Assembly (NCBI GenBank): GCA_905178155.1 | Contig: CAJINV010000019.1 | Span: 914,913-978,912 of the forward strand | Direction of reading: 5' to 3' | DNA: 64,000 nucleotides | DNA from: Amoebophrya sp. A120 | Taxonomy: Eukaryota; Protista; Dinoflagellata | Part shown: positions 1 through 25,799 of the stretch, in pieces | Layout: each line of letters begins with the position of its first letter | Position numbering within the stretch: position 1 is the first letter of the stretch | Translations under genes and position numbers: made by a program | The notes under the pieces: generated by a model | The model's database searches: none | What the model was told of the DNA's origin: nothing | What the model saw: the letters and a program-made list of their open reading frames with translations, nothing else

Positions 1-211
1 AACGAGCCGATCTTCGCACGGGAAAATAAACCTTCGCTGTCTTCTTGGAATCTTCGTGTGTGATTCAGACAAGAATCATCAAGACCAGCACTTCTGTGAA
101 CTTGGCGAAAAATCCACTGTAGTAGTCACCTCCGTCTTGCAATTGATTCTAAAACTCGGCCTGAAAAAACTAACTCGTCGCCTTCAAGAACTCGTGCACA
201 AGACCATCCCT

Positions 212-2314
212 TCACAATTCCTCCGCCTTTGCGTTCTTCTCGACTTCAAATTTTTCCGGCCACCCCCTCGGGCGGTAGTGGATGAAGACGTTGGCAAATT
301 CCCGGCCCGGGAAGGGTGTCGGCCGCCCGTGCGGTAGCGTTGCCGACTCGTACAGAATGATCTGCCCCGCCTTGTTGGGCACGTACTTCGTTTCCCCACT
401 GTGCGTCACCACCTGCATATGGAGTAAAAAAAGTTCGTCATCATAGTCACTGACTTGCAGTTTTTGCATGAGATTTTTTTATTTTTGCATCACAGGTTTT
501 TCGTGTATTGCTATTGCACAATTACAAGAGAAATCCCATGTAAAATTAGACTGTGATGCATTTTTACATATGACAGAAATCTTCGCATTGCCAAAACGCG
601 CATGAGTGATCGTGACGAATTTTTTTTGTTCGTCCATACTGCAACGGCCAGCTGTGGTCGTAGGTCTGCTCCATGCCGTGATACTGATCGTCCGGAAACC
701 CAAACTCCAGATGGCCCACCTCCACAATGGCGCTGATTGCGTGCGTGTCGCGCCGGTCGTATGAACTGCAAAAGTATCGTACTCGTACAAATGCATCAGC
801 ATTACAAGTTTCATCAGCGTGAGAAATAAAATTTGCAAATGCTGATTTACCTTGAAAAGAGAGATTTGCACTATATGCATGAATGCAATACGAGTGCGAT
901 GCTTTTGCACAGGATAGGTCGCCGTGCATCCGCATTTCGGAGTTTTGTCGGTACAGTCGGGTTATGAAATGCAAAAGCATCGTCCTCGTATAATTGCAAT
1001 CATGCATTACAAATCTTTTCCCTGAGGCTGCCGCTGAGGTACGTCAGCATTACATTTCTCATGCTGAGGAAATTTGTAATGCGTTTATACGAGTACGATA
1101 CTTTTGCACTGCATACGGATGCCGTACAACGCCGTCATCTCTAGTTCACTCGCCTCGAACCCCGTCCACTTTGCCACCACCGGCTGCATGACTGCCTGCA
1201 ACCTGTTCTTCAGGTCCTGGCGGAGCTCCACGAGCCACATGTCCGTTTTGCACGCCGGAATCGCCCCGTCGAGCCACCTGGTTTTCTCCGGTTTCGCGAG
1301 TTTGTTGCGGTTTTGCTGCCAAAACGCGCGGATGTCCCGCAACAACTCCGGGTCCGGGAAGTCTTGCACCTCGAAGCCCTCGGGCGTGAATTTCCGAAAT
1401 TCTTGCGTCTGCCTCCACATCTGCTGCATGTCCTCGTCGTGCGTTTTCTTCAATTCTTTCTCGTACTCCAAATTCAGCAGAATGTCGGTCAACGCGGTTC
1501 CGCCGGTGTGGTTGTAATAGGTACTGTGCTGCGAAATTGTATGGACAGAGGATGTTGTTGCAGCAACACTTCTACTAGCTCCTTCTATCGGCGAAGCAAA
1601 CGGGGCAATAAACCCTGGGGGCCAAATCGTGGTCAGGAACGGCGCTAGAGTAGACGACGCACTGGTGCCACTGTCGGCAGATGACAGGGAAATCGTTCCT
1701 GGATACTTGAATCTGCACCGGGTCGGGTTATAGTCTCGCGGGCTGTTCATTCGGTCGCAGAAGTGCGCGCGGTCGGCGTCGTCTTTTGCCAGCTGTCTCC
1801 GGCACTCGCGTCGCCAGTCTCCCACGGCTTTCTCCCATTTTTCCCCAGCGAAAAACTGCTCTTCCGTCGGCCGGTCCACCCAATCGACATCGCAATGGAT
1901 GGCGTTGTCGCTTTGATTCTCCAAGCCCTCGCTGGTTGCACTAGCTCCACCGTCGGCACAGGTACAGACCACGGCGCCGCTTTTCGCACCCTGCTTCACC
2001 GTGACGTGGAAAGTGTCCTTGATTTTTGTCGGCCGCTTCTCCTCCTCTTCCTTCCACCCATCATCTGTGCTTCTCGTTGTAACGCGAAAGATGTGCCCTT
2101 CAAAGGTGTCCTGGGAGGCAACGGCGCCGGGAAAAATCGTTTCGATCGGGACGGGCTTTTCCTTCGGGTAGTTCTCGGGAATGAAGAGGAGCTTGAGGGG
2201 GGAGCTTGCGCAGCTGTTCTTGAAGGTCAGCGGGTGGACGGGCTCGGCAGCGGAAGCGGGGCTGCACGATGTAGCAAGCAGTTGTAGAGTGGCCAGGAAG
2301 GTGGGGCCGCGCAT
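212..2314 (-). CDS. Secreted/ER 2OG-Fe(II) dioxygenase (prolyl-hydroxylase-like), copy A, ~518 aa, 3 introners
   Basis: N-terminal signal-peptide-like sequence (MRGPTFLATLQLLATSC). After removing 963-1115, 760-916 and 418-638 (each plus a 5-bp repeat) it reads LYGIRLYRQNSEMRMHGDRRDTHAISAIV...WPLQVV...ILYESATLPHGRP...FANVFIHYRP, giving an HxD...H facial triad. C-terminal AEEL resembles an ER-retention signal. Spliced length 1557 nt is divisible by 3. Confidence 0.8.
418..638. mobile_element. Introner (TIR TATGGA...TCCATA, DR CTGCA), copy-A specific
   Basis: Direct repeat ctgca at 413-417 and 639-643; imperfect ~25-bp TIR; empty site in copy B near 8930. Confidence 0.92.
760..916. mobile_element. 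Introner family F2 (TIR TGCAAAAGTATCGYACTCGTA), DR GGTCG
   Basis: DR at 755-759 and 917-921; inserted at the HGD codons; shared with copy B. Confidence 0.9.
963..1115. mobile_element. Introner family F2, DR CGGGT/CGGAT
   Basis: TIR tatgaaatgcaaaagcatcg / cgatacttttgcactgcata; splits YGIR|LY; shared with copy B. Confidence 0.9.
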
Positions 2315-4234
2315 CGTGATAGATGGTGCTACAGCTTATTTCATTCATCTAGTGTAATTGTTTCACTTGAAAGACAGTACGAAAAACCAAGACCAACTTG
2401 ATGAACTCGGAAAAGAAGATGCGGCAAAGGCAAGAATGCACTTCCGTGACATTGGTAGTAGAAAACTGCTTGTAGAAGCGAATACAACGACGGGCGTTCT
2501 CGCGCCAACATCTAGCCCTGACGCCACTCTCCTATTGTTCGTCACAGCTATTGAATTGCTCGCACGCCCCCTGCTCTCCGCCTAGGTTCATTCAACTGCT
2601 CGCTCACGGATCACAAACAGAACCAACGAGCACAAAGCTCATGCCAGACGACGTGACATGCTGTGTGTGTGCGGTGGCTCACATCCAGCAATCAATCCGC
2701 GCAGTCGGCGTTCGCCATCGTCACTGCGCTTCATCTTTGTATTACTCCTGTGCACACAGATCAAGCTGGTGTCGGCTGCCCCGGCAGCGCGCGAACGCAA
2801 GTCAGTTGTAGTGCGCCCCGCGGCAACCATCCAACGGCCCCGCGCAAACGCCTAGCTACGCCGACCGGGAGGGGTTGTAGGCAGTCGTCGGCCCATGCGA
2901 CGCCCGGCGCGAATAGGGGCGCGGGGATGGCAACAATCAAAAACCGAGACACTCACACGCGGGGCAGCGCTACGGCAAAGCAGGGCGCAAGGGCCCAACA
3001 CTCCACGCAACCCTGCTCGTCGGGGTGCTTGGGCGGCAATCGCCGCGCCGGCCCCTCAATCCTTCCAACGAACCAGAGAGGTGGGCGGCGAGGGGGAGAC
3101 ACAGAACCCCCCGCCCCTCGCGGCGGAGCCGGCCCACGCCGTTGCCTGTTGGCCGATGGAAAGCAAAAGAAACAGGGCGGGCGCGGCTCCGCTTCGCTAT
3201 CGCTTGATTCGGAGTCGGCGAGGTCCCGCATTTCGGCGGCGAGGAGGTACGGAGCCCGATAAACTGCTTCGCGGGGGCAAATCGCGCCACGGTCCCACTG
3301 CACGCCCTCGCATACGCCAGACCTCAGCGCCAGCCCGCCGAGAAAACGCGCCGGCGTGCCCGGCGAGGATGGAACCGGCACGCCGGCAGAGGCCCCGCCA
3401 CCTCGCGAAACGCGTCCCCGCTTGCAACTACGACGAAGCCATCCGGGTAGTCTTATTTCGAAAACGCTGTAAGTAGAGTAAAACTCCGTACCTACTATTT
3501 ATCTTGGAAATGTTGAATTCGCGACAATCTTGAGTCGTCATTCACAGTCTTTGTGGCATCGTTGCTCCTCAGTTAAATCATACAGTAGTTCTTCAGCGGC
3601 CATCAGAAAATTCACTCTGTCTTTGTAGTTTTTTGGCGTTTATTATTTCTTATTCTCGCCAGCTTCCAGACTCTCGTCGCGACCAAAATGGAGAAGAGAC
3701 TGGTTTCTCTCGCGCGTTTTGGATTCTACCCCTCGAGTGTGGAAAAAAGTTTTCTCAAATTATACAATTGTGCTGGAACGCTAAAAATCTAAAAATCATG
3801 CCAGAAGGTTCTCGAAATTTAAAAAAAAAAAATTGCCCTGCATGAAGGAGCTTGTTTTTATTCGTATGTACTATCAGGAACAAAATCCGTGCGTCAGCAA
3901 CACATTTCACGGTCGTCCCCACCGTATCTTGACTGCTGCGTGCTGCTCGACAATTCTCCCAGGAGATTATTATACACGACGTCTTGATCTTCATTATCTT
4001 TCGCGTTTGCCTCGCACACCTCCGCCAAGGCGACATAGACGTTTCTACTCTTTGCGTCGAAACAGAAAACCGCACAATGGAGGTCTTTATTTTCGCGGGT
4101 CCTTAACATCAAAAACTGCATCTCCGAAAATGTAGTTGCTCGTCGATCCCGTCGGGAACTACGAGAACATTCGTTCATCGGTGCATCTTCCTGGAAACAA
4201 AGAAAGCTCACCCACTTTTTCATCATCTTCACCT

Positions 4235-7200
4235 TCAATGCTTAGCCGCAGGCTTCAGCCCTTTCGGACTACTCTCCCCGTCACTCCACCTTTCCCCGCT
4301 TTGCAACGTTTTCTCAAAGTCTGCCATCCTCCACGGTTTACTGCACTTGAAATCGTTGCGGACGGACCTTAATTGCCGGAAAATGTCCTCTTCCTTGGAC
4401 TCCCCTAACTTCTTCGAAAACTGCTGCACGCGGAGAAAGTATGGATGTGTCAGGTTTGAAATCAACAAAGTTGAAATGATTTCTCATGCATAAATTGCAA
4501 GGCATGAAGTGCCTCTTTTGCAGGGATGGCAAGTGAGGCCGATCTTCAGCCTGTTTGGGGTCTGCGATAGAGCTGCTGAAGTAGCATCACAAAAGACGCC
4601 TTCTTTCCCACCTAGACAGCATGACAAACTGGATTTAAGCGGTGCCAAAATTTGTCATGCGCCGCTTGGAAATTGGGCTTCCAACTGGTATCGATTTCAT
4701 GCATTACAAATTATATCAACTTTGACGATTTCAATCCTGACACTACCATAGAAAGGGCGACGTCAATAACTCCTCCTCCGCGGTAAAGGGTACTGTGGGG
4801 ATTTTGTCCTTGCGCAAGTCAACTATTTTCTTGCATCGGTCGATCACCGCTTGCCGGCTCTGGTCCGACTTCTCCACCAGCGCGAGGGCGAACTGACACC
4901 CGTCCGTGGCGTACTCGTGGGCGCAGTAGATCAGCGTGGATTTCGGAATATGGTCCATCAACCGCTGCTTCAGGGCCCTGCGGTATATTGTTTTTTGAGT
5001 ATTTTATGTCGCGTTTTCAATTTTTTGAAAGCTCCCCCGCTGGCAACCGGAACGCCAACTGCTGGCGTAGCAAGCCGACACAACACCACAATAAACCGCA
5101 ATTGCACAGACAATGTTGACCTCTAGCTAAGTGAGAATTATGATGTGGGAGATGTTGCCTAAATGTAGCAACAAGAAGTAAGAAGATGAACATCTGTGTA
5201 CAACGATACACGCAAATTAATAACCGTAGTAAAAAAAAGTACCTGTAGCAGTCCGCTGCGTCGCCCTCAAAGAGCCTGCCGCAGCCCATGGGAAAGACGA
5301 TGTCCCCGGTGAACACGATCCCGTAGGATTTCAAAAAGAACCCGATCTGCCCTAACGTATGCCCCGGAACGTGGATAATCTCGAAGTCCAGCGGCCCGAG
5401 GTTCAGGTGCTCCCCGTGCTTGCAGAGCTCGGAAAAGTCCGATTCCTCCGCGAACTTTTTCAAATTCGGCAGCTCGATCCGTGACGCGTACATGCGCGGC
5501 CGGTGGTTGTTATTCGCTTTGAAGTTGTCCGCCGCAATCTCGTTCCACGCGCCCAGGTGATCCCAGTGCCAGTGGGTGATCAGCACGTCCGTGATGACGG
5601 AGCCGAATTCCTCCTTTGCACGCTGGCAGTACTCCAGGCCGTGCCCCTGCGGCAAGTCGATGGCGATCACGCGCGCGGCCTGGCTGGTCTGGCTCACGCG
5701 ACGACTGTTGTTCCTTGGAGGGCTGCTGTTGTTGGTGGTGGTGGTGCCCGAAGTAGAAGTAGGTTCTAATTGCTCTGGAACGTACAACAAGTACCCGTAG
5801 TTGTCACTTAAACACGGGAACTGGATCAACTTCAGCGTCGGATGCGACTGTTCCTTGTCAAACTTCTCCGCAAACTTGTTCGCCTGAGTGTAATGCGGCC
5901 GCGGGGACCCCTTCGGCACAGATTTCAGTGGCTCGATGTCCACCCGCTGCACCTCCGACCACGTCTGCCGCCCGTTGGACTTGTCCAGAAGCTTCTTGTT
6001 TTCCGAAGACGGGCCGGGGAGAAGGTTTGATGATGAATTACCTGCAGTAGTTGCACTCGTCGACATCATGGCCGCGGCGGAGGGGCGAGCTTTCGGCGAA
6101 AAACCACCAGTAGTATTCGAAGGCTTGATACTAGCCGGCGAACCAGAGTTCGAGCGGGCGAGAGCGGATGTTGAACCTCCGCCGCCGGAATTCGTGCGAG
6201 TCAGTCGCGGCGACTTGGTGGTCGACGTCCCAGAAGCTTTTGCCTTATTCTTCCTTTCCTCCTCGTCCACCACCCCAGTCATCGCCACCGCGTGCGCGTG
6301 CACTCCGTGCGAAACAACCCCGTGCCCACTGCCCATCTTGGACTCCAAAATCGTCAATTGGACCACCAACCCGTCCGGATCCCGAACGCATCGCAACACC
6401 GGGTCGAAAGTGGGCGAAGTCGAGATCTTGCGGAACTGCGCGGGGGAGACGCCGATGGAAATGGATTCAAAAGCGGGCTTCTCCGGGGATAAGTCATCCG
6501 GCCCGGCGAGCACGGGTGCTGTTTTGTCCATATTCCGCATGTGCTGGATTTCCAGTGTCGTGACGGGTAACTGGTACAGCCACTCCCTTTGCGCTTGGAT
6601 TTTGCTCTCCATAGTACCGATCTTGCTAAAGTCTGGCACTTTTTGCTTCATCTCATCCGTCAAATACGCGAAGAAATACAGGTCGAAGTTGTACGGCGAA
6701 ACTTCCTGTTTCTCCAATAAAGTCATGCCCAGCACCTCGGTGTAAAACTTCACACACAAATTCGCATCTTTCGTCCGGGTGGTGACTTGCCCGATCACCG
6801 GGTCTAGCATGCGCGTCAACGGGTTCCGCGCACGAAGTCCGCTCGACTGCAGCTTCTCTTCCGCTCGCTCGATCCGTTTCTTTTTCGTGGCGGTGTTCCC
6901 TTCGAAACTCGTCTGAAGCAGCTCAATCGGAAATCCGACCGGATCCGCGATGTGCTCCAAGTATCCGACGTTCAAAAACTGTTCCGCCTTCGCGTTTTTC
7001 TTGCCCAAACCGGTCCTCAAACAGTCATCGACGTCGTCTACCGCCAGCCCGATCTTCCAGTACAGAGGCCGCTGGAAGTTCACTTGCTGCTGGCTACGAT
7101 CCTTAGTCTGGGCCACGACCTGCTTCCCGGGGGGCAAAAACCGGAAGTTGAGCTGCGCGGAATGGGGCGAGTTCCGGAAATACAGATTGTCGATCGTTTG

Positions 7201-7344
7201 GCCGTTCGGAAAGGTCGCCGTTGTCTGCGCGACCATACCCAGCGACTCACTGTAGAACTTTAATACCTCGTCGCGAAACTGCCCAGGTACGCGGTAGGTG
7301 GCGGCCAGGAGGCGGGACGAGGTCTGGTTCAAAGCTGATTCCAT
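4235..7344 (-). CDS. Glyoxalase I-like (tandem VOC) plus glyoxalase II (hydroxyacylglutathione hydrolase) fusion, copy A, ~842 aa
   Basis: One uninterrupted ORF links VOC motifs (KFYSESLGM, YWKIGLAVDD, DPVGFPIELLQ, FYTEVLGMTLL, TTLEIQH, DPDGLVVQL) to metallo-beta-lactamase/GloB motifs (THWHWDH, PGHTLG, FTGD, GCGRLFEG). CAHEY and PTVP..EE...PFLR follow after a GT-AG intron (4978-5242) and introner 4440-4750. Spliced length 2529 nt. Confidence 0.88.
4440..4750. mobile_element. Introner family F3, DR GAAAG, copy-A specific
   Basis: ~38-bp TIR; DR at 4435-4439 and 4751-4755; aligns end to end with 19831-20138; absent in copy B near 13300. Confidence 0.93.
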
Positions 7345-8704
7345 TTTTTGTTTTTCTTCTTATGTGCGTGTGGCTGTGGGGGGGGTTAGAAACAATTCTG
7401 AGGCGTTTCTTATTTTTTATTAAAAATTTGGATTTGCGTAACAATGCTAGAACAGCAACAGAATGTGTGTAAGTAGGTCTACGGAATGAAATATTGATTT
7501 ACGGTCGGAAAAACATGAAAGAGATCACGACAAATTGCGTTCTTCCTTAGCGTTAATAGATCACTAACTCGGATGAGGATGTGGCACTCAAAGATCAACC
7601 TGGAGGCGAAATCAATAGCACAGACGTCGACATAATCTTAAGTGGGATCAGAATAGAAAGATCTTGACATGAACAGGCGCAAGTATTGAGGGAAATTGTC
7701 GATTAGAATTCTGTGTAGGAGCACCAACTGTCGACAATTTTGAGACAGTGTATTTACAATGGCATGCTGGGTCTGAGGTCGGCAAAATTGTTACTTAGGT
7801 TCCGCTCAAGATACCATTACCATTTCTTGTTCCATATCGAAAATAAACAGAAGATGCGTGAGACGGTCAAGGTACCGAATAGATTCTGATGGCGTGTGCG
7901 TGTCGAAGACAAAATTCATCATTATGAGATGAATGCACTCTCAATACCAAAATGTCGCCTTGAAAATTGGACGATTCTTGTCGCATTTCCAGAAGAGATC
8001 AGATATCTTCGCTCCCCAGCATGATCAATATCAATATCGGAGCAAAATGTTGATATAAGCTTCGTCCTGCTTCGCATCTACTTAGCTCGATGTAGTAACT
8101 TCCATGAAAAAAAGAACCGAGGTTTGCTAACAAGAAGCGTCCGCATAGTTCATGAAGCTTTAAACGCGGTTTTCGATTGCCTTTTTGTTCGGGACCCTCC
8201 GCTCTCCGACATTGCATGTCCTCACACGAGGAGAGGACTTACCGACCTCATTTTTGTTCCCAGGGAGCTCCAAATCCACTTCCACTCATCTCGCTTTCTT
8301 CACTACTGTTTTTCCCTGGAGAGAAATTCCCTAATTTTCAGCCAACCCTCTCTAGTACGTACACTCGAAACTACAACTAGAACAATCGATCCTCACTTTT
8401 TTACAGCAGAAGCTGGCTCTGATTGGAGACAGTTGTGCTTTTCTTGGCCACGCAACGCCGTGCGGCTGTAGCCACAACGACAACGAGCCGATCTTCGCAA
8501 GGGAAACTAAACCTCCTTCGCTGTCTTCTTGGAATCTTCATGTGTGACGCAGACAAGAATCATCAAGACCAGCACTTCAGCAAAGAATTCGGCGAAAAGT
8601 CCAGATCCACTGTAGTAGTCACCTCTGTCTTGCGATTGATTTTACAACTCGGCCTGAAAAAACTAACTCGTCGCCTTCAAGAACTCGTGCAAAAGACCAT
8701 CCCT

Positions 8705-11068
8705 TCACAATTCCTCCGCCTTTGCGTTCTTCTCACCACCTCCAGGCCGCCGCGCACCGACTTCAAATTTTTCCGGCCACCCCTTCGGCCGGTAGTGGAT
8801 GAAGACGTTGGCAAATTCCCGGCCCGGAAACGGTGTCGGCCGCCCGTGCGGTAACGTTGCCGACTCGTACAGAATGATCTGCCCCGCCTTGTTGGGTACG
8901 TACTTCGTTTCCCCACTGTGCGTCACCACCTGCAACGGCCAGCTGTGGTCGTACGTTTCCTCCATGCCGTGATACTGATCGTCCGGAAACCCAAACTCCA
9001 GATGGCCCACCTCCACAATGGCGCTGATTGCGTGCGTGTCGCGCCGGTCGTATGAACTGCAAAAGTATCGCACTCGTACAAATGCATTAGCATTACAACT
9101 CAACTGGAACAACACACCACTGGAACGATAGAAGAAGTGTGTTCATGTTTTGTAATTACAAGTTTCATCAGCGTCGGAAATAAAATTTGCAAATGCTGAT
9201 TTACCTTGAAAAGAAAGATTTGTATATGCATGAATGCAATACGAGTGCGATGCTTTTGCACAGGATAGGTCGCCGTGCATCCGCATTTCGGAGTTTTGTC
9301 GGTACAGTCGGGTTATGAAATGCAAAAGCATCGTCCTCGTATTGCAATCATGCATTACAAATCTTTTCCCTGTGGCTGACGCTGAGGTACGTCAGCATTA
9401 CATTTCTCATGCTGAGGAAATTTGTAATGCATTTATACGAGTACGATACTTTTGCACTGCATACGGATGCCGTACAACGCCGTCATCTCTAGTTCACTCG
9501 CCTCGAACCCCGTCCACTTTGCCACCACCGGCTGCATATGCATTGCAAATATGCCTGGGTCCGGAAGACTGCGAGACTTCTCATGCTAGTTTGGCACGAC
9601 TCTGAACTCTGTATTGCGCAGGGCCATCGGATGTTTCTCATCATGCGGAATACGCAACACAGAGCCGCGAGGAAATCTGTCATGCTTGCCGGTGCATTAC
9701 AGTGTGGTTATTTTTAATCATTGACATGCATCACAAGTTTCCAGACCCAGCAAATTTAATTTGCACTTGATACTGCATCATCTTTTGCAGCCTGTCCTTC
9801 AGGTCCTGGCGGAGCTCCACGAGCCACATGTCCACAGAAAATTTCCCGCACACGTACAAATGCAGTCTCTGCATAACAAAACTTGCCTTCAGTCCTAGTC
9901 TAGCATGACAAGTTGGACACTGCAAGTTAACGAAATTTGTCATGCATTTTGTACATGTACGGGAAAAGGAAATTCACATTGCATACCACATGTCCGTTTT
10001 GCACGCCGGGATCGCCCCGTCGAGCCACCTGGTTTTCTCGGGTTTCGCGAGTTTGTTGCGGTTTTGCTGCCAAAACGCGCGGATGTCCTGCAACAATTCT
10101 GGGTCCGGGAAGTCTTGCACCTCGAAGCCCTCGGGCGTGAATTTCCGAAATTCTTGCGTCTGCCTCCACATCTGCTGGATGTCCTCGTCGTGTGTTTTCT
10201 TCAATTCTTTCTCGTACTCCAAATTCAGCAAAATATCGGTCAACGCGGTTCCGCCGGTGTGGTTGTAATAGGTACTGTGCTGCGAAATTGTATTGACAGA
10301 GGATGTTGTTGCAGCAGCACTTCTACTAGCTCCTTCTATCGGCGAAGGAGCAACCGGTGCACTAAACCCTGGGGGCCAAATCGTGGTCAGGAACGGCGCT
10401 AGAGTAGACGACGCACTGGTGCCACTGTCGGCAGATGACAGGGAAATCGTTCCTGGATACTTGAATCTGCACCGGGTCGGGTTATAATCACGCGGGCTGT
10501 TCATACGATCGCAGAAGTGCGCGCGGTCGGCGTCGTCTTTTGCAAGCTGTCTCCGGCACTCGCGTCGCCAGTCTCCCACGGCTTTCTCCCATTTTTCCCC
10601 AGCGAAAAACTGCTCTTCCGTCGGCCGGTCCACCCAATCGACATCGCAATGGATGGCGTTGTCGCTTTGATTCTCCACCTCCTCGATGGTTGTACTAGCT
10701 CCACCGCCGGCACAGGTACAGACCACGGCGCCGCTTTTCGCACCCTGCTTCACCGTGACGTGGAAAGTGTCCTTGATTTTTGTCGGCCGCTTCTCCTCCT
10801 CTTCCTTCCACCCATCATCTGTGCTTCTCGTTGTAACGCGAAAGATGTGCCCTTCAAAGGTGTCCTGGGAGGCAACGGCGCCGGGAAAAATCGTTTCGAT
10901 CGGGACGGGCTTTTCCTTCGGGTAGTTCTCGGGAACGAAGAAGAGCTTGAGGGGGGAGCTTGCGCAGCTGTTCTTGAAGGTCAGCGGGTGGACGGGCTCG
11001 GCAGCGGAAGCGGGGCTGCACGATGTAGCAAGCAGTTGTAGAGTGGCCAGGAAGGTGGGGCCGCGCAT
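8705..11068 (-). CDS. Secreted/ER 2OG-Fe(II) dioxygenase, copy B, ~527 aa, 4 introners
   Basis: Paralog of 212-2314. Frame restored by removing 9829-9985, 9537-9772, 9314-9463 and 9051-9267, each with one DR (1584 nt). Confidence 0.8.
9051..9267. mobile_element. Introner family F2 (ortholog of 760-916) with an extra ~60-bp internal insert
   Basis: DR ggtcg on both sides; same TIRs as 760-916. Confidence 0.9.
9314..9463. mobile_element. Introner family F2 (ortholog of 963-1115)
   Basis: Near-identical to 963-1115; DR cgggt/cggat. Confidence 0.9.
9537..9772. mobile_element. Introner family F1 (TIR TGCAAAWATGTCTGGGTCTGGAAG), DR CTGCA, copy-B specific
   Basis: DR at 9532-9536 and 9773-9777; empty site in copy A near 1185. 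Confidence 0.9.
9829..9985. mobile_element. Introner, DR CCACA, copy-B specific
   Basis: DR at 9824-9828 and 9986-9990; imperfect IR (tttcccgcacacgtacaaatgca / tgcattttgtacatgtacgggaaa); empty site in copy A near 1236. Confidence 0.85.
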
Positions 11069-13097
11069 CGTGATAGATGGTGCTACAGCTTATTTCATTC
11101 ATCTAGTGTAATTGTTTCACTTGAAAGACAGTACGAAAAACCAAGACCAACTTGATGAACTCGGAAAAGAAGATGCGGCAAAGGCAAGAATGCACTTCCG
11201 TGACATTGGTAGTAGAAAACTGCTTGTAGAAGCGAATACAACGACGGGCGTTCTCGCGCCAACATCTAGCCCTGACGCCACTCTCCTATTGTTCGTCACA
11301 GCTATTGAATTGCTCGCACGCCCCCTGCTCTCCGCCTAGGTTCATTCAACTGCTCGCTCACGGATCACAAACAGAACCAACGAGCACAAAGCTCATGCCA
11401 GACGACGTGACATGCTGTGTGTGTGCGGTGGCTCACATCCAGCAATCAATCCGCGCAGTCGGCGTTCGCCATCGTCACTGCGCTTCATCTTTGTACCACT
11501 TCTCCTGTGCGCACAGATCAAGCTGGTGTCGGCTGCCCCGTCAGGCAGCGCGCGAACACAAGTCAGTCAGTGGCGCGCGCAGCGGCAAGCATTCAACGGC
11601 CCCGCGCAAACGCCTACGCTGGCCTGCAGGGCTTGCAGGCCGCCTCGGTCGCTCCTACGACGCCCGGCGCGAATCAATCGGGGCGAGGGGATGGCAACAA
11701 ACACAATCAAACCCAGACAAGGGGCAGCGCCACACACGGCAATCAAAGGGGGGCGCAAGGGCCCAGCCGCCCCACCCGACACCCGGGGGCATCGCACGGG
11801 CGGCCGGCGGCAATCGCCGCGGCCGCCCCTCAATCCAGCGGGCCGCCCGATCCAGGGTGGGATATGGGCGACCCGGCGGGGGGGGCGCCGAAATCGCCGC
11901 CCCTTACGATGGGCCGGGCGCCCGCTGTTGTTTCCAATCAGGAACGGCCCGGCCGGGGCGCAAAATAAGAGGGCGCGGGTGCGGCACTGATCAAAGTCGG
12001 CTGATCAAAAGCACACTGCAGCGGCCGGGGCATGCGGCATCGCGTGCAAAACCCCCCTGCGAAGCTGCCTCGCGCGCGCGAGCGAATCGCCCCGCGGCCT
12101 GACTGCGCGCCCTCGCGTAGTACGCTAGACCCCAGCGCCAGCCCCCGGAGAAACAGCGCCCGCGTGCCCGGCCGGCGACGAACCGCCACGCCGCGGCTGC
12201 CCTATGTACTAGGTGCGTAACCAGGCCGCAGAGGCCCCGCCACCTCGCGAACAAAAGCGTCACCGCTTACAACTACGACGAAGCCATCTTCCGGGCAGTC
12301 TTATTCCGAACACGCTCAAAAACTCCGCACCTACTATTTTTTGATCTCAGACTTAAAAACGAATCAATTCGCGACAATTTTGAGTCGTCATTCACAGTCT
12401 TTGCGCCATCGTTGCTCCTCAGTTAAATCATACAGTTCCGGAGCCATCAGAAAACTTCGTCTCTCTTTCTAGTTTTTTGGCGTGTATTCATCATTCTCAC
12501 CAGTTTCCAGACTCTCGTCGCGACCAAAATGGAGAAGAGACTGGATTCTCTCGCGCGTTTTGGATTCTACCACTCGAGTGTGGAAAAAAGAAGAAGTTTT
12601 CTAAAATCATACAAATGTGGTGCTGGAACGCTAAAAATCTAAAGAATATCATGCCAGAACCAGAAGGTTCTCGAAATTTGAAAAAAAAAATTCCCTGCAG
12701 CAATATATGAGCTTGTTTTTTTTATTCGTACGTTGTACTATCAGGAACAAAATCCGTGTGTCAGCAACACATTTCACGGTCGTTCCCGCCGTATCATGAC
12801 TGCTGCTGCTCGAAACTTTTCCCGGGAGATTATTATACACGACGTCTTGTTGATCTTCATTATCATTCGCCTCGCACACCCCCAAGGCGACATGGACGTT
12901 TCTACTCTTTCCGCCGAAACAGAAAACCGCACAATGGAGGTCTTTATTTTCGCGGGTCCTTAAGAACATCAAAAACTGCAACATCTCCGAAAATGTAGTA
13001 GCTCGTCGATTCCGCCGGGAACTACGAGAACTTTTGTTCATCTGTGCATCTTCCTGGAAACAAAGAAATCTCACCCACTCTTTCATCGTTTTCACCT

Positions 13098-16000
13098 TCA
13101 GTGCTTAGCCGTAGGCAGCTTCAGCCTTTTCGGACTACTCTCCCCGTCACTCCACCTTTCCCCGCTTTGCAACGTTTTTTCAAAGTCTGCCATCTTCCAC
13201 GGTTTACTGCACTTGAAATCGTTGCGGACGGACCTTAACTGCCGGAAAATTTCCTCTTCCTTGGACTCCCCTAACTTTTTCGAAAACTGCTGCACGCGGA
13301 GAAAAGGCGACGTCAATAACTCCTCCTCCTATGCAAGAAAAAAACTGTGTAAGTGTAAGTCTGTGATGCAGAAAATGCAAAATAGTTACACTTGTCATGC
13401 TGGACATGCATCAGAAGCTCTTTTCGTGCGTGTTTTCACGTACTAGCCGCGCATGACAGGCTCTCTCTGTCATGTGAAGCAAATTTGTGATGCTATTCCT
13501 CCAAGAAAGTTACACTAACACAGTTTTTTTCTTGGATACCTCCGCGGTGAAGGGGACTGTGGGGATTTTGTCCTTGCGCAAGTCCACGATTTTCTTGCAC
13601 CGGTCGATCACTGCTTGCCGGCTCTGGTCCGACTTCTCCACCAGCGCGAGAGCGAACTGACACCCGTCCGTGGCGTACTCGTGGGCACAATAGATCAGCG
13701 TGGATTTCGGAATATGGTCCATCAGCCGCTGCTTCAGGGCCCTGCGGTATATTGTTTCTATAAATATTTTCAATTTTTTGAAAGCTCCCCCGCCGGCAAC
13801 CGCAACGCTAACTGCTGGCGTAGCAAGCCGACACAACACCACAAACCGCAATTGCACAGAGGATGTTCTTGACCTCTAGCCAAGTGAGAATTATGATGTG
13901 GGAGATGTTGACTAAATGTAGCAACAAGAAGTAAGATGAACATCTGTGTACAACGATACACGCAAGTTCACCGCAGACGTAGTAAAAGTACCTGTAGCAG
14001 TCCGCTGCGTCGCCCTCAAAGAGCCTGCCGCAGCCCATCGGAAAGACGATGTCACCGGTGAACACGATCCCGTAGGATTTCAAAAAGAACCCGATCTGCC
14101 CTAACGTATGCCCCGGAACGTGGATAATCTCGAAGTCCAGCGGCCCGAGGTTCAAGTGTTCCCCGTGTATGACAGTGCACAACTCCCCCTCCCCCTCATT
14201 TGTATAGCATGACCGGCAATACAAGCATCAGCAAGAATGCCGGTTGCGCATGACAAATTAGCATATGGAGTGTAGTGCCATTTGGGCTGCCAGAACTTGT
14301 CATGCAAACAGTGCCAAGAGGCAAAAAAGGGTGGATTGGGTATTTTGCATGACAAATGAGGGGCTGGGGGGGGGTTGTGCACTGTCATACCGTGCTTGCA
14401 GAGCTCGGAGAAGTCCGACTCTTCCGCGAATTTTTTCAAATTCGGCAGCTCGATCCGCGACGCGTACATCCGCGGCCGGTGGTTATTGTTCGCTTTGAAG
14501 TTGTCCGCCGCAATCTCGTTCCACGCGCCCAGGTGATCCCAGTGCCAGTGGGTGATGAGCACGTCTGTGATGACGGAGCCAAATTCCTCCTTTGCGCGCT
14601 GGCAGTACTCCAGGCCGTGCCCCTGCGGCAAGTCGATGGCGATCACGCGCGCGGCCTGGCTGGTCTGGCTCAAGCGGCGACTATTTGGGCTGTTGATGGT
14701 GCTGCCCGAAGTAGGTTCTTGCTCTGGAACATACAACAAGTACCCGTAGTTGTCACTTAGACACGGGAACTGGATCAACTTCAGCGTCGGATGCGACAGC
14801 TCCTTATCGAATTTCTCCGCAAACTTGTTCGCCTGAGTGTAATGCGGCCGCGGCGACCCCTTCGGCACAGATTTCAGCGGCTCGATGTCCACCCGCTGCA
14901 CTTCCGACCACGTCTGCCGCCCGTTGGACTTGTCCAGAAGCTTTTTGTTTTCCGAAGACGGGCCGGGGATAAGGTTTGATGATGAGTTACCTGCAGTTGC
15001 ACTCGTCGACATCATGGCCGCCGCGGCGGAGGGGCGAACTTTCGGCGAAAAACCACTAGTAGTATTCGAAGGCTTGATAGAAGCCGGCGAACCAGAGTTC
15101 GAGCGGGCGAGAGCAGATGAACCCCCGCCGCCGGAATTCGTGCGCGTCAGTCGGGGCGGCTTGGTGGTGGTCCCTCCAGCAGCTTTTGCCTTATTCTTCC
15201 TTTCCTCCTCGTCCACCTCCATCGTAGTCATCGCCACCGCGTGCGCGTGCACCCCGTGCGAAACAACCCCGTGCCCACTGCCCATCTTGGACTCCAGAAT
15301 TGTCAATTGCACCACCAAGCCGTCCGGATCCCGAACGCAGCGCAACACCGGGTCGAACGTGGGCGAAGTCGAGATCTTGCGAAACTGCGCGGGGGAGACG
15401 CCGATGGAGATGGATTCAAAAGCGGGCTTCTCCGGGCTCAAATCATCCGGGCCGGCGAGCACGGGTGCGTTTCGGTCCATATTCCGCATGTGCTGGATTT
15501 CCAACGTTGTAACGGGTAACTGGTACAACCACTCTCTTTGCGCTTGGATTTTGCTCTCCATAGTACCAATTTTGCTAAAGTCCGGAACTTTTTGCTTCAT
15601 TTCCTCCGTCAAATAGGCAAAGAAATACAGGTCGAAGTTGTACGGCGAAACTTCCTGTTTCTCCAATAAGGTCATGCCCAGCACCTCCGTGTAAAACTTC
15701 ACACACAAATTCGCATCTTTCGTCCGGGTGGTGACTTGCCCGATCACCGGGTCCAGCATGCGCGTTAACGGGTTCCGCGCACGAAGTCCGCTCGACTGCA
15801 GCTTCTCTTCCGCTTTCTCGATCCGTTTCTTTTTCGTGGCAGTGTTCCCTTCGAAACTCGTTTGGAGTAGCTCAATCGGAAAGCCGACCGGATCCGCGAT
15901 GTGCTCCAAGTAGCCGACGTTCAAAAACTGCTCGCCCTTCGCGTTTTTCTTGCCCAAACCGATTATTGTTTGCAAAAACGTCCCCACGACCCCACACTTG

Positions 16001-16581
16001 TCATGCAAAGTGGCATGCCTAAAATGTTTCTCATGCGCAGACACAGTAAAGCCATTTTCTAATGCTATCTGGAAGTTTGTGATGCTGGAATCACGCAAAG
16101 GTAGTCGATTTGTGATGCGTCGCCACTGCCTCAAACAGCACTACACTACGAGTCCAAATTTGTCATGCAAAACAGCCAAAGCCTCTAGGTTTGTGTTGCG
16201 AAATCCCCATCTTGACTCTGGGATGGGGACGCTTTTACTCAGGATACCGGTCCTCAAACAGTCATCGACGTCGTCTACCGCCAGCCCGATCTTCCAGTAC
16301 AGGGGCCGCTGGAAGTTCACTTGCTGCTGGCTACGATCCTTATTCTGGGCGACGACCTGCTTCCCGGGGGGCAAAAACCGGAAGTTGAGCTGCGCGGAAT
16401 GGGGCGAGTTCCGGAAATACAGATTGTCGATCGTTTGGCCGTTCGGAAAGGTCGCCGTTGTCTTCGCGACCATACCGAGCGACTCACTGTAGAACTTTAA
16501 AACCTCGTCGCGAAACTGCCCAGGCACGCGGTAGGTGGCGGCCAGGAGGCGGGACGAGGTCTGGTTCAAAGCTGATTCCAT
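13098..16581 (-). CDS. Glyoxalase I-like plus glyoxalase II fusion, copy B, ~834 aa
   Basis: Paralog of 4235-7344; shares the GT-AG intron (13742-13991) and has three copy-specific introners; spliced length 2505 nt. Confidence 0.88.
13330..13538. mobile_element. Introner family F4, DR CCTCC, copy-B specific
   Basis: TIR tatgcaagaaaaaaactgtgtaagtgtaa; reverse-complement homolog of 39394-39618; empty site near 4775. Confidence 0.92.
14168..14389. mobile_element. Introner family F5, DR CCGTG, copy-B specific
   Basis: Near-perfect TIR tatgacagtgcacaac; reverse-complement homolog of 35009-35224; empty site near 5415. Confidence 0.93.
15964..16246. mobile_element. Introner family F6 (TIR AAAAACGTCCCCA), DR CCGAT/CCGGT, copy-B specific
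   Basis: Empty site ccggt in copy A near 7010; similar to 24529-24813 and 37916-38201. Confidence 0.9.
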
Positions 16582-17205
16582 TTTTTCTTCTTATGTGCGT
16601 GTGGGCGTGGGGGGGGTTAGAAATGATTCTGTAGGCGTTTCTTATTTTTTATGAAGAGAGGAAACTAAGAATTTGGATTTCTTGCGTAACAATGCTAGAA
16701 CAGAATGTTGTGTGTAAGTAGGTCTACTGAATGAAATATTGATGTACGGTCGGAAAAACTTGAAAGAGATCACGACAAATTGCGTACTTCCTTAGCGTTG
16801 CTTCTACTAACTCCGATGAGGATGTGGCACTCAAAAATCAACCTGGGGGCGAAATCAGTAGCAACACCGTCGAGATAATCTTAATCAATACATGATAAAG
16901 TGGGATCAGAATGACTTACTTCTTATCTTCCTAGAAAGATCTTGACATGAACTTGAACAGGCACAGGTAAGGGAAATTGTAGATTAGAATTCTGTGTAGG
17001 AGCACCAACTGTCGACAATTTTGAGACAGTATTTACAATGGCATGCTGGGTCTGAGGTCGGCAAAATTGTTAGGTTCTGCTCACGATACCATTAGCATTA
17101 CCATTTCTTGTTCCATATCGAAAATAAACAGAGGATGCGTGAGATGGTTAAGGTACCGAATAAATTCTGATGGCGTGTGCGTGTCGAAGACAAAATTTAT
17201 CATTA

Positions 17206-17525
17206 TGAAACAGAAAACCGACAGGGTTCTGTGACTGTGGATCGTGCAACGCATGAGAACACCAGGAAGATCACCAGCGACAGACTGCTACGCAGTCTCA
17301 GGAAAAAAGGTTGATCATACTAGCAGAAAAGGCAACAAGCACAAGGCTTGAGCCAAACACAGGCAGCGTTAGTTCATGTAGTCTCATCCGGATGAATAGG
17401 CATTGTATTAGCTAGACCCAGGTAACGAGTACGACCCTAGGTAGACGAGTTAACTATCTCCTTAGCTTTCATACGAGCACAAGCAACCACACGTCACGAA
17501 CCGAAATTCCCTTGTGGAATTAACA
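17206..17525. mobile_element. 320-bp solo-LTR-like insertion (TG...CA ends, 4-bp TSD ATTA)
   Basis: Absent from copy A (attatgagat at 7921); ATTA at 17202-17205 and 17526-17529. Confidence 0.6.
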
Positions 17526-17925
17526 ATTATGAGATGAATGTACTCTCAATACCAAAATGTCGCCTTGAAAATTGGACGATTCTTGTCGCATTTCCAGAAG
17601 AGATCAGATATCTTCGCTCCCCAGCATGATATATTTTCTGCCATATCAATATCAATATCGGATCAAAATGTTGATATAAGCTTCGTCCTGCTTCGCGTCT
17701 ACTTAGCTCGATCTAATTTCAAGGAAAAAATGAACCGAGGTTTGCTAACAAGAAGCGTCCGCATTCTTCATGAAGCTTCAAAAGGGCATGATCGTCCGCA
17801 GAAAGACAATCAGCCGCATCAAGCTCACATAATCTTTGCTTGCGGAATCGATGATCGCACAACGACGTCAGATAACGATAACGAGGACCCAGCGTTCACC
17901 ATATATAATTTTTAGAGGTATAATT

Positions 17926-20900
17926 TTATCCCGGTCCTGCCTTCTGCGCGAACCCATCTCGCGGAATCTCCACGTAAAAGGGTCTGTCCCGCACGCAAAT
18001 GTGACTGATGGCGCACAAATTATCTTCCACCCAATCCTCCGCCATCTCCACCGTGTGTCCCGTCTGCAAGGTCGTTTTCCGCGGATAGAGGTGGTCTGTG
18101 TCGAAATCAACAGCATCCGAAGACGAACTGCTGGACGAGGAGGGTTTTTTGAATCTGCCTGCTCCGACGTCATTCATTTTTATTTTACTGCTGATCTCAC
18201 TTGACGCCGTTATTTTTTTCAGCGTCTTTCCCCCTGGCCAGCGCGGACTGTCTCCGCTACTATCTTCGGAGGATGACAACAAGATCACTTCATTGTCGTC
18301 TTCGGGCGGGAGGAGGAAGCTGTTCTTGTTTCTATTTGCATTTTGAAGATTCATGGAAGACTTTTTCTGCTCGTCCGGTGCTGGTGGTGGTTCTGCCGGA
18401 AATAAATGCTGTGCACCAGCACGCCGTCCAAGATCTGTAGCCCCAACGCCAGCACCACGATTCGCGGCTGCAAACACCTCCACCTGAGAAAAATCTGCCA
18501 CGTCTTTATTCGTCTCGTTCACGACTGTTTCGTTCACGACTTGTTCCTGCTTGATGTCCCCCTCCAGCCCAGTGACGTCGGCTTTGAGGACCCAACCGGA
18601 CTCACTAGCCTGCAAGTCCATGTTGCCCATCACGCTCTCGGTTTGCTTTTTCAGCAACTCGAGCTTGTTATCCCACAGAAGAGAGCAGGCAGGTCATATT
18701 TGTAATGCAAAAATAAATACAGAAAAAAATTTGGGTTGCGTGATATCCTAAACAGCTTGCTATGGGTATGGGGCTGCCCATGATAGATTTTTCTGTGTAT
18801 TTTAATTTGCATCACAAATATGCCTTGCCAGCTTTTTTCTGTGCGATACTTGTCCAGCACATCCTCCTTCGATTGCGGTTCGATCTTCCGCTTTTTTGGT
18901 GAGGGAAGTAGATCATCGTTTTTATTACCACCAGCACGAAGCTCTTTTTCTACTTCACTTGCGTTTTCACTCTTCTCATTCGCGGTCTTGGTCCCACCAC
19001 GTAGAGCTAGAGGTGACGGGCTGTTCCTCCTGCTTTGGTTCTTTATTGGCTCATCTTCTTGACTGAATGGGAGTAGTCTTTCCACGACTGGCTTCTTGTT
19101 CCTCGATGATAGTGGAGCTGCATCCATGATCTCTTTGCTTGTTTGTAGTTTGTCGTCGTGTTGTTCTTCACGATGCAAGCTGGTGCTGCCTCCCACCAGC
19201 AACGACCCTGAAGAAGCTACCGGTTCACTGCTTTTCCGCCTTTTGTTTCTTTTCGACGTCCTTGCGTGGAGGTCGGGATCTGCCACACCAGCACCGATCA
19301 TACACTTGTTATCTTGATAGACGAGCGAAGAAGAGAGAGACGGACCGCCGCCGTTCAACATATTCCCACGACTCTGAAACCCGTTTTTCCGGTACTGCCG
19401 GAACTTTTTCACGAACGTCTCTTCGTGCGCAAAGTCGAAGGTCCCGAGGGCCAGCCACATCGTGTGGCCCTGTTGCATGGCCGCCATCTCGTACACGATT
19501 GACAGGTGCGTCCCGCACTCGGTACACACGTGCCGCTTCCCGTGGTCCGTGGTTCTTTTCAGAATTAACGGGTGGCTCTTGCCCTGAATCACGGACCCGT
19601 TCGAGACGTGGTCTTCTTTGCGCACGTGCTTCCACTTGAACATGCTGTACTGCACCGGCGCCCAGGTCTGAAACGCGCACCCCGACATTCTGCGGCACAT
19701 CGAGCAGTAGCAGTGCTGAATTTCGCTGGGAAACACGTACGCCTCGAACTGACACTTGCCACACAAGCAGCTCCCCGTGAAGGACTCGATGGTGGGGCAG
19801 ATATCGTTGTTGTCTTTGGACGTGCTGGCCTATGGAAGCGTCAGAATCGAAATCCTCAAAGTTGAAATATTTTCTCATGCAGAAATTGCAAGGCATGGAG
19901 TGCCTCTCTTGCAGGGATTGCAAATGAGGCCGATTGTGAGCCTGTTTCGGGTTTGGAATAGAGCTGCTAAAGTAGCATAACAAAAGGCGCCTTCTGTCCC
20001 TAAACAGCATGACAGACTGGTTTTAGACGGTGCCGAAATTTCTCATGCGCCGCTGGGAAATTGGGCTTCCAGCTGGTATCGAATTTATGCATTACAAATC
20101 ATTCCAACTTTGACGATTTCAATCCTGACGCTTCCATATGGCCAAGTTGTTGTTTAATCCTCTTCTGCCGCCGGCCCCGGTAGGTGGTTGTTGCACAAAT
20201 TGATGATGTCTCGAACTTGATGTTGGCGTCCTGTTGTTCATCTGTGTGGTCGGAGCCCCACCTCCACCCCGCTGCCCAAACGACTGCACGATCTCGCTCA
20301 AATTTTTCAAATTTTCTTCCGAGTCAGAACTGGTCAGCGCCAAGTGGTCCGCGGCGTAGAATTTGTGCTGCACGAGTCCGAATTTCTCGAGTCTTTTTTT
20401 CTCCTCCTGCCGGGATTCCCACAGTTGCTTCTCCAGCATCCGGTCATTGATGTCGTCCTGGATCTGAAACATCTTCCAGCTCGGCAAATTCGCGCGCTCG
20501 ATGTGCGCCCAGCAGGCCCGTTGCTCCTGGAACCCGTAGTCGGTGATGTCGAACCTGACCCGCATGTCCTGGTACAGAAACCGGCCCTCCGGCCGAGAGT
20601 CGAGGACCATGCCACCGGAGGTGAAAAAGTTCCAGTAGGAGGCCTCGTTGTTCTGTCCATCTTCGGTACTAGTAGTTCTTGTGATCCTGCAAGCCATGCC
20701 CACGACACTGTAGCAATCCTTGCATAAGATCTTTTTCACCGGGGTCAAAAGTTTGGTGCTGGAGGTTTGGTCGCCGTTGCCAAAAAGTGAAGCAGAAGTT
20801 GTAGCCGATGAATTTTTGGTCGGCACCAACGCAGGAGTAGAAGTAGCTTCCTCGCATTGTATATTAATTGCGGAAGGTGTACTGAAATCCCCCGAGGTCG

Positions 20901-23900: not shown

Positions 23901-25799
23901 TGACGATGCTGCTGTCTCGACTTTTGATGTTTCATCATGTTCAGCATCCTCTCCGCCCAATCTCCGTGCCTGATCCTGAATTTCCAGTTCCTGTAGCTTG
24001 ATTTGCTTATCTTCGTCCAGCAGCTCCCGCCATTTCGCGGCATACAGCCGTTCCAGCGTCTCCTCGTTCTCTTCACGCTCCTCGTGTTCGATCTGTTCCG
24101 CCAGCGTCTCGTCTATCAAATGCAAACATGTCTCGGTCTGGAAATTTGTGACGCTACAGTGCGCATGATGTTGAAAACGCTTCCTTATGCACGAAAGCAT
24201 AACAAGTTTGCAGCAGGAGACCGCTTTATTTCTCATACACATTCCGCATCAGAACCTGCGTTTTTGTTTGACAAAACAGGCTGCGACTTTTGTTAGTCAC
24301 GCAATACAGATTTCACACCAATGTAAGGCCAGCATTACAAGTTCCAACTTTCCAGACCCAGACATATTTGCCATGCATATCGTCGATCTGCTCCCGAATG
24401 TCGTCGACGGTAAAAATATCTCGCAATTCCCCGATCGTCTTGTCGCGGTGCACCAACTGGTTTTGGAGGCGTAGCTGCTCCTCCGCCATCCGCAAGTGAA
24501 AATTGTCTTCGGCGCCCGGGCTGATCTCTATCGTGTTTAAAAACGTCCCCACCCCATAGTTGTAATGCAAATCTGCATGCTGAAAATGTCTCTCATGCGG
24601 AGCCCCACGAGAAGCATTTTCTCGCCGTGTTGTGGAATTTGTCATGCTCATATCAGGATGATATACTAGGTCTGTGATGCTGCTGAGGTAGCTCAAACAG
24701 CACTACACTACGAGTCCAAATTTGTCATGCAGAACAGCCAAAACTTGTAGATTTGTCTTGCCGCTTCGCTTCCCCATCTTGACTATGGGGTGGGAACGTT
24801 TTTCCATAGGATAATCTCCTCTTCATCGTCATTGTCCCCGATATAATCATCCTGCCCTTCTGAAGGCTGTGGACTGCCGAAAAATACACCGGAATAAAGC
24901 TGTTCTTCTTGAAGAGCAGGCCCTGCTGGTGGATTTCTTTTGCCCGTACTCGATGACGATGACGCAGCGGCAGCGCCAGTACCAGTCAGTATCGTTTTCA
25001 TCCCGTTTGCACGAGCTCCACCGCTCGCCGCAGTTATTCCCATTTGCTCGACGCTGTCAAACCGATCCGCGTGCTGATTTTCGTCGTAATTATTCATGAT
25101 GTCCTCTAGCACAGGAGGTGTACCGCTTGTTCCACCTAGAAGTTCCCGGGCCTCCCGCCTCCGTCTGCGCTCCTCCTTTCGCGCCTTTCGCTTCCTTTTA
25201 TGCTCCTTTGTCCGCTCCGACAGCTCTTCTTCCTCGTTGTCTGCGCCGGCGTCGGAGGGGTTATTTTGAAAAGCTTCACGTTGTTGCATCGGGACCCCAC
25301 GACCTGTAGAATTGTCGTCCTCCCCGACGGAATCTATGATCATATCATCCTCGTTGCTGATCAGCGGCTGATCAGCCTGCAGCTGCTGTTCAACTCCTTG
25401 CAGCTGCTCCCCGCCACCTCCACTCGCGTCGATCAGGGTCGGATCGTCGCAAATCGCCTGCGTGGCGGCTTCGGTGCTTCCGAAGGCCTCGATCAAATTT
25501 GCAGCCATCTCGGCGCTAATATTGAACAGCGCGACGAGCTCCGAGGCGCCGGAGTGATGTGAAGCTTGTTCTTGGTTCTGGCTATTTTTGACAGAGGCGA
25601 ATGCGAATGCCCCTGAGGCGGCACCAGGAGAGCCGTCGTGATTGAGGAGGTTCATGTTCATCTCCTGGTCGTCCGCTTGTTCCATCTCTATGTCGGCCGG
25701 TCCCTCTGCTACAGTATCACCGGCCGCAGGCGGAGGCACGCCATCGGGATAAGCTTCCTGTTCCTGCGGCAACTCACCATGACCATCGAAGGGCTCCAT
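17926..25799 (-). CDS. Large (~1838 aa) protein with two GFA/CENP-V-type Zn-binding domains, coiled coils and a possible N-terminal UBA-like helical unit; 9 introners
   Basis: Removing nine introners joins ten exons in frame (5517 nt). Motifs: CECQC...HVCHCWFCRKHAG...LCKDC and GSCLCGKC...HCYCSMCRRMSG...RHVCTECGTHL...SHICV. Confidence 0.8.
18669..18848. mobile_element. Introner, DR CTTGT
   Basis: ~43-bp imperfect TIR; spliced junction reads LDK|LELL. Confidence 0.9.
19831..20138. mobile_element. Introner family F3, DR TGGCC
   Basis: TIR tatggaagcgtcag; homologous along its length to 4440-4750. Confidence 0.93.
21413..21636. mobile_element. Introner (F4-related), degenerate DR TCGAG/TTGTG
   Basis: Homologous to 29127-29338; removal restores frame. 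Confidence 0.85.
21714..21977. mobile_element. Introner family F1, DR GTTTC/GCTTC
   Basis: Perfect TIR tatcaaatgcaaaaatgtctgggtctgga; junction gives KLHVCHC. Confidence 0.92.
22601..22870. mobile_element. Introner family F1, DR CTCGT/CTCGC
   Basis: TIR tatgca.tgcaaatatgt; internal similarity to 58663-58928. Confidence 0.9.
22919..23193. mobile_element. Introner family F1, DR CGCGA
   Basis: F1 TIRs; junction PIA|TEEE in frame. Confidence 0.9.
23567..23806. mobile_element. Introner, DR GCAGC
   Basis: TIR tatgg..ttctca.ctgttaca; junction ELL|AVC in frame. Confidence 0.88.
24114..24379. mobile_element. Introner family F1, DR TCGTC
   Basis: F1 TIRs; junction IDE|TLA in frame. Confidence 0.9.
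24529..24813. mobile_element. Introner family F6, DR ATCTC
   Basis: TIR aaaaacgt.cccaccccatagt; junction EEEI|SPG in frame. Confidence 0.9.

Follow-up and report, generated by a model that had tools for sequence, protein, structure and literature searches.

Seven introner presence/absence differences between tandem copies of a two-gene block in Amoebophrya sp. A120

The duplicated block and its genes

The window analysed here is a 64-kb stretch of the Amoebophrya sp. A120 genome (contig CAJINV010000019.1, positions 914,913 to 978,912 of the forward strand), and all coordinates below refer to it. It contains a head-to-tail duplication of a block of two genes, delimited by self-BLAST and global alignment, and the two copies (A and B) differ by seven introners, the repeated and mostly non-canonical introns of this lineage, each of which is present in one copy and missing from the matching position of the other. 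Both genes lie on the minus strand in either copy. Copy A probably starts upstream of window position 1. The units and genes are listed below, with the strand where one was assigned.

1..8164: copy A of the duplicated unit (self-BLAST, alignment)
8165..8481: junction or spacer between copies A and B, 317 bp, bridged by a read contig
8482..17782: copy B of the duplicated unit (self-BLAST, alignment)
212..2314, minus strand: gene 1A, 518 amino acids (aa) when spliced; the last 160 aa are public protein P0005
8705..11068, minus strand: gene 1B, 527 aa when spliced; splice model identical to public protein P0006, stop inferred from the A/B alignment
4235..7344, minus strand: gene 2A, 842 aa; the last 806 aa are public protein P0002; Pfam domains PF00903 plus PF00753 and PF16123
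13098..16581, minus strand: gene 2B, 834 aa; splice model identical to public protein P0007; same Pfam fusion as gene 2A

The four public proteins are records of Amoebophrya sp. A120. Frames of these lengths (518 and 527 aa for gene 1, 842 and 834 aa for gene 2) open when each element is excised together with one copy of its flanking repeat. The encoded proteins are 96.5% and 96.3% identical between the copies for the two genes, which agrees with an earlier inspection of the same DNA (the sequence-only reading) that had described them as still highly similar.

Private introners and their empty sites

Nine introner positions were found in the duplicated block, and seven of them (95% interval 40-97%) are private to one copy. 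The private inserts measure 157-311 bp, and for all seven the boundary analysis returned exactly the positions that the sequence-only reading had assigned:

418..638: A418, introner in A only; repeat CTGCA; empty site B 8930-8934
4440..4750: A4440, introner in A only; repeat GAAAG; empty site in B reads GAAAA; 86% identical relative at 19831-20138
9537..9772: B9537, introner in B only; repeat CTGCA; empty site A 1185-1189
9829..9985: B9829, introner in B only; repeat CCACA; one end TGT; empty site A 1235-1239
13330..13538: B13330, introner in B only; repeat CCTCC; empty site A 4775-4779, about 25 bp from the A4440 site
14168..14389: B14168, introner in B only; repeat CCGTG; 82% identical relative at 35009-35224
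15964..16246: B15964, introner in B only; repeats CCGAT/CCGGT; 73% identical relative at 24529-24813

Inverted-repeat ends are present on all seven, with 14-23 of 25 terminal bases pairing between the two ends. Thirteen of the 14 ends start with TAT; the remaining one, in B9829, reads TGTCC in place of TATCC, and the apparent repeat is therefore stretched to 10 bp. Every element is flanked by a 5-bp direct repeat, in one case with a mismatch (the intron-side repeat of B15964, CCGAT vs CCGGT). The empty sites hold a single copy of the 5-mer in seven of seven cases, six of them exact and the seventh matching in four of five letters, the changed letter at the A4440 site (GAAAA instead of GAAAG) being synonymous. 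Because it is present once at the empty site, the repeat acts as a target-site duplication, as had been proposed earlier. A doubled-repeat footprint was seen at none of the empty sites.

Among the 21 pairs that can be formed from the seven private elements, only short stretches were alignable (best local score 35; shuffle maxima 21-28), and the elements therefore represent seven unrelated families, one more than the minimum of six first suggested. Relatives elsewhere in the window were found for five of the seven (four full-length, one partial), and summed contig depth was very high over A4440 and the gene-1 elements of copy B. A window-wide scan for inverted-repeat candidates, which missed three of the seven private elements, mis-paired the shared ones and is not a census, found an exact 5-bp flanking repeat in 15 of 37 candidates and exact repeats of 3, 4 or 6-10 bp in 0 of 37. 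Three shuffles of the window yielded 9, 4 and 6 candidates, none with a flanking repeat. The two members of a repeat pair differ by about 5% across the window (5 of 95 letters, 19 elements), as expected if most inserts are young.

The filled and empty forms of B9537 and of B9829 were each found together in read set X1, and the filled ends of B9537 also in X7. The empty forms of B14168 and B15964 were bridged by X1 contigs (5376-5696 and 6671-7226, respectively). Directly beside the B9537 site there are about 7 substitutions in 20 bp (1189-1207 vs 9777-9796) that change three residues (N..QAV vs D..QKM); this cluster possibly reflects error-prone repair at insertion or a conversion border. The family related to B9537 has further elements at 22600-23193 and 55410-55692, whose ends are apparently nested or doubled.

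The two elements of family F2 and the one GT-AG intron that had been described as common to both copies were confirmed at aligned positions:

A 760-916 / B 9051-9267: shared introner F2a; repeat GGTCG; 5 mismatches in 154 aligned bases
A 963-1115 / B 9314-9463: shared introner F2b; repeats CGGGT/CGGAT in both copies; 3 mismatches in 150 aligned bases
A 4979-5243 / B 13743-13992, minus strand: shared canonical GT-AG intron of gene 2; 15 mismatches in 243 aligned bases

F2a and F2b lie 46 bp apart within gene 1, a proximity that may reflect local hopping. Two more inserts specific to copy B, at 9092-9154 (63 bp) and 17202-17525 (324 bp), are without inverted repeats and are flanked by 7-bp direct repeats (ATTACAA and ATTATGA). 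The 63-bp insert is located inside the B copy of F2a and is likely a secondary gain, since it is missing from the F2 family member near 39205-39305; break repair is perhaps its source.

Removal from transcripts

Splicing was followed in read sets X3 and X5, which are likely RNA by an automated guess rather than by their records. One likely-RNA contig links position 9045 to 9986 through 160 letters, the exonic length expected after removal of four elements. Another crosses the A418 site with A-type letters 25-30 nt away. At the B9537 site, X3 has B-type letters with no element, and X1 has the end of the element ahead of those letters. A418, B9537 and B9829 are thus absent from likely-RNA contigs bearing letters of the copy that carries them, so that transcript removal is seen directly for these three and for both shared introners; for the other four private elements the evidence is indirect, in that the splice models agree with the annotated proteins.

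A canonical GT-AG reading is possible for one of the seven private elements (B13330). The sequence is compatible with more than one splice register within the 5-bp repeat. In seven of the nine elements of the block a G stands at the transcript-side end of the repeat, giving a GT donor (P about 0.003); by eye this was not evident among the other elements of the window, whose gene orientation was not determined, and it is not generalised.

Divergence and rate of intron change

Synonymous divergence (dS) between the copies is 0.073 (0.045-0.102) in gene 1 and 0.197 (0.158-0.243) in gene 2, with non-synonymous divergence (dN) of 0.017 and 0.022. The shared introners differ at 8 of 304 aligned bases and the canonical intron at 15 of 243 (about 3-6%); the first intergenic stretch differs at 246 of 1426 positions (17%), with one 250-bp block at 38%. 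CpG hypermutation was considered as the cause of the high gene-2 dS and rejected, 19 of 132 differences being at CpG and the CpG observed/expected ratio being 1.18. The sequence-only reading had called the duplication recent. It is older and less tidy than this suggests: the divergence is uneven, as gene 2 and the intergenic stretch show, and the near-identity of gene 1 is in part probably a product of the assembly.

The last point rests on a 553-bp tract that is identical in A and B:

2189..2741 (B 10943-11495): identical tract (A/B alignment)

Within this tract, A-type contigs occur at depths of 22.3 and 29.6 and contigs with different letters stand beside them. The tract is likely an assembly overwrite of one copy; gene conversion was tried as its explanation and set aside, contig depth favouring the overwrite. 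Moreover, of the read variants displayed over gene 1 and the DNA upstream of it, 12 match neither copy (one more, at 1190, was an alignment artefact and is not counted). They belong to a third version of gene 1, represented by read variants over 1730-2642 and by protein P0001 on an 11,136-bp contig. Of the 28 protein columns that vary, P0001 shares the B state at 23, and 9 of these stem from two indels. Two synonymous arginine codons occur in three different forms, which suits three real versions; over 12 contig depths, some with approximate variant positions, a two-version model gave a coefficient of variation (CV) of 0.13 vs 0.27 for three copies. The third version may be another paralog or copy B assembled twice; in both cases the gene 1 copies look more alike than they are. 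Gene conversion and assembly overwrite together have probably made gene 1 appear younger than gene 2. The third version was also tried as an outgroup lacking B9829, on the basis of an X7 contig, and was rejected for this use, since that contig proved to be mosaic and has A-type letters where B9829 would sit.

Alongside the seven intron differences, the two copies show about 122 synonymous and 63 non-synonymous differences. The local rate is thus one intron change for every 17 synonymous differences (95% range 8-43), and one for every 9 that alter an amino acid. The rapid intron turnover claimed at the outset is supported relative to point substitution, and suggests that the birth of new introns is unusually fast at this locus. 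Published counts put the non-canonical introns of A120 at about 0.9 per kb of coding DNA (PMC7789003). At the local rate, such a load would accumulate within roughly 0.02-0.11 substitutions per site.

Origin of the differences

The head-to-tail duplication of the two-gene block is real. In read set X1 a short-read contig covering 8117-8675 joins the A-specific end sequence, the spacer and the start of B with 0 differences, at a depth of 28.5 that compares with 24.6, 26.1 and 30.1 for three A-only contigs (contig depth not being equal to copy number), and a second match to the spacer was sought elsewhere in the window and not found. The tandem arrangement first read from the assembly is thereby confirmed at the level of short-read contigs: separate haplotypes would be without such a join, and the end of A should then continue into downstream sequence instead. 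All 11 gene-2 read variants displayed in X1 are B-type, so both gene-2 versions are present in the same run, and the public annotation places P0002, P0005, P0006 and P0007 on one 1,327,443-bp contig. That two haplotypes or strains were wrongly joined in tandem is accordingly very improbable, even though the assembly is locally flawed (the A-type contigs of the identical tract are at single-copy depth), the two-version model fits the contig depths better than three copies do, and the depth comparators all come from inside the duplicated unit.

Within this duplication, most of the seven introners were probably inserted independently after the copies had diverged. Parsimony favours gain over loss in gene 2, because, of two neighbouring sites some 25 bp from each other, one is occupied in A (A4440) and the other in B (B13330), and because the canonical GT-AG intron has been retained between two sites that are empty in A; loss by recombination with cDNA would require reciprocal tracts with very tight borders. 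Several points weigh against this reading. The clock along the unit ranges from about 3% to 20%. A close outgroup was sought and not found: a metagenome scan for close orthologous loci returned 12 metallo-beta-lactamase-fold loci, all distant (22-38% identity), which were left out of the analysis, and orthologs at 42-44% identity are available as proteins, not as DNA. The repeats of the private elements have decayed at 1 of 35 letters, a level that fits gain and loss alike (P = 0.12-0.90 under ages of 0.10-0.015). The nearest full-length relatives within the window are 73-86% identical, and relatives of A418 and B9829 were sought in the window and not found. The filled forms of B13330, B14168 and B15964 rest on the assembly, not on reads. 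Of the 21 long stop-to-stop frames in the rest of the window, 13 were searched and none matched a transposase or integrase, and A120 is reported by Farhat et al. to be without transposase (PMC7789003). Finally, this is a single locus singled out for being striking, and the rate is therefore probably biased upward.

The alternatives concern what the empty sites and the divergence mean. Several of the differences could be precise losses, through conversion by spliced cDNA, conversion by the empty paralog, or footprint-free excision repaired via the 5-bp repeat. A precise loss leaves an empty site that is indistinguishable from one never filled, and in gene 1 loss is plausible: B9537 and B9829 are 51 bp apart with the cluster of about 7 substitutions between them, and one conversion tract could therefore strip both from A. 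Decay in two private elements (the B9829 end and the B15964 repeat) and the patchy divergence along the unit, as conversion predicts, point the same way, and gain, loss and conversion-like tracts have all been seen in Zymoseptoria (PMC5647799). As a general account we nevertheless regard loss as unlikely, since the reciprocal filling about 25 bp apart and the retained canonical intron would need many separate tracts, none of the empty sites bears a doubled-repeat footprint, and conversion by an empty paralog presupposes an earlier gain or loss. It is quite unlikely, too, that unequal crossing-over brought diverged alleles or introgressed haplotypes side by side, so that the intron differences are older standing polymorphisms. 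In favour of such an origin, the dS intervals of the two genes do not overlap, the intergenic stretch reaches 17% and locally 38% difference, gene 1 has a third version, seen in reads and as P0001, and conspecific Micromonas are polymorphic for introners (PMC4540971). Even so, the rate per unit of divergence would be unchanged, and only the statement that the changes date from after the duplication would fall.

Proposed mechanism and significance

Insertion after divergence would fit a mechanism in which the introners are non-autonomous DNA transposons resembling miniature inverted-repeat transposable elements (MITEs). An enzyme acting in trans would recognise their TAT...ATA ends and insert them where it has cut the target with a 5-bp stagger, a chemistry that no fewer than seven unrelated families would have shared over the same period. 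Splicing would then take out the insert with one copy of the repeat; the protein would be unchanged by such exact removal, and the insertion could therefore persist in coding exons. That the repeat is 5 bp long and comes with insertion (or goes with exact loss) suggests an integrase or transposase that makes staggered cuts. More speculatively, and on balance doubtfully, the locus may be typical: most of the roughly 40,000 non-canonical introns of the lineage might have been laid down, or might be replaced, within 0.02-0.1 substitutions per site. Many unrelated families would then draw on a single integrase-like enzyme yet to be discovered, one that acts on TAT...ATA ends, cuts with a fixed 5-bp stagger and is perhaps related to IS3EU/GingerRoot, and conversion between tandem copies would spread or erase the introns.

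The locus provides seven pairs of filled and empty sites in one genome, at which the flanking repeat created on insertion or removed on exact loss can be read as 5 bp, together with a first local rate of intron change relative to point substitution. Its value is mainly that of a template for a genome-wide test. In A120, 185 highly conserved tandem duplicates have been counted (PMC7789003), and the same comparison is applicable to every young paralog pair in the genome, so that the question becomes testable without new strains. If the locus is typical, young paralog pairs in one genome would give the genome-wide birth rate of introns and their choice of target. Each pair of copies is also a natural pair for studying the splicing of introns that are not GT-AG.

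Gene products and neighbouring features

Gene 2 encodes in one chain a glyoxalase domain (PF00903, glyoxalase I-like) fused to hydroxyacylglutathione hydrolase/glyoxalase II domains (PF00753, PF16123), and is predicted from its sequence to be a glyoxalase I-glyoxalase II fusion. The same fusion occurs in two further Amoebophrya data sets (P0004 and P0008) at 42-44% identity; a literature search on it found no report. Gene 1 gave no match in a Pfam search, and a feature search offers as a lead a resemblance of its C-terminal part to 2OG-Fe(II) oxygenase clusters. Near its end, gene 1B has a 24-bp in-frame insert (8734-8757) that adds 8 residues and is found in P0001 too, not in A.

Neighbouring frames and one further repeat in the window are:

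18651-19829, minus strand: GFA family frame (PF04828)
26650-29223, minus strand: FAD_binding_3 frame (PF01494)
55576-56661, minus strand: DUF285 frame (PF03382)
48927-49139 and 52142-52354: 213-bp ungapped repeat, 76% identity

The GFA gene, of a glutathione-linked aldehyde enzyme family, lies directly past the glyoxalase fusion.

Comparison with known introners and transposons

The elements belong to the introners already described from Amoebophrya; they are a new instance rather than a new element type. Farhat et al. (PMC7789003) described in A120 non-canonical introns of many families that are thought to be still spreading, about 150-310 bp long, whose terminal inverted repeats (TIRs) start with TAT and whose boundaries carry direct repeats of 3-5 nt; the private elements share the size, the inverted repeats, the TAT ends (13 of 14), the direct repeats and the removal from the transcript. 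Comparing distant strains, these authors found gain and loss indistinguishable and argued against general mobilisation by a transposase, because the two strains share almost no positions of non-canonical introns. Unlike in their data, filled and empty sites stand side by side here, the repeat is 5 bp and a local rate can be given.

According to Gozashti et al. (PMC9860276, PMC12130899), the target-site duplication supplies the splice boundaries of introners that are non-autonomous TIR elements; in Aureococcus, another isolate has an empty ortholog, and the A120 families were classed as TIR DNA elements of unknown superfamily. Paralogs, which were filtered out of those surveys, are what was compared here. 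The automated repeat lengths in 21 A120 family rows of PMC12130899 are 2 bp (7 rows), 3 bp (1), 4 bp (3), 5 bp (3), 6 bp (1) and not called (6), in contrast to the uniform 5 bp at this locus; the 5-bp length may already be stated in the supplements of PMC7789003 or PMC12130899, or on bioRxiv. Our literature search, which left subscription journals mostly outside its reach, found no report of introner presence/absence between Amoebophrya paralogs.

With MITEs the elements share the single-copy empty site, present for all seven (six exact). IS3EU/GingerRoot transposons have TA...TA termini, an integrase-related DDE transposase and a target-site duplication that is usually 6 bp (PMC10045372). The termini are common to both, but the duplication here is 5 bp and an exact 6-bp repeat was found in 0 of the 37 window candidates; the group can thus serve as a lead to the mobilising enzyme rather than as a classification.

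Further parallels are known from Micromonas (PMC4540971) and Zymoseptoria (PMC5647799), in which repeated introns likewise show presence and absence in near-identical genes, fast turnover and conversion-like tracts near the sites. Those comparisons concerned alleles of different isolates and mostly canonical splice sites, whereas here tandem paralogs within a single genome were compared, in which seven families are found within about 4 kb of coding DNA and the boundaries are mostly non-canonical.

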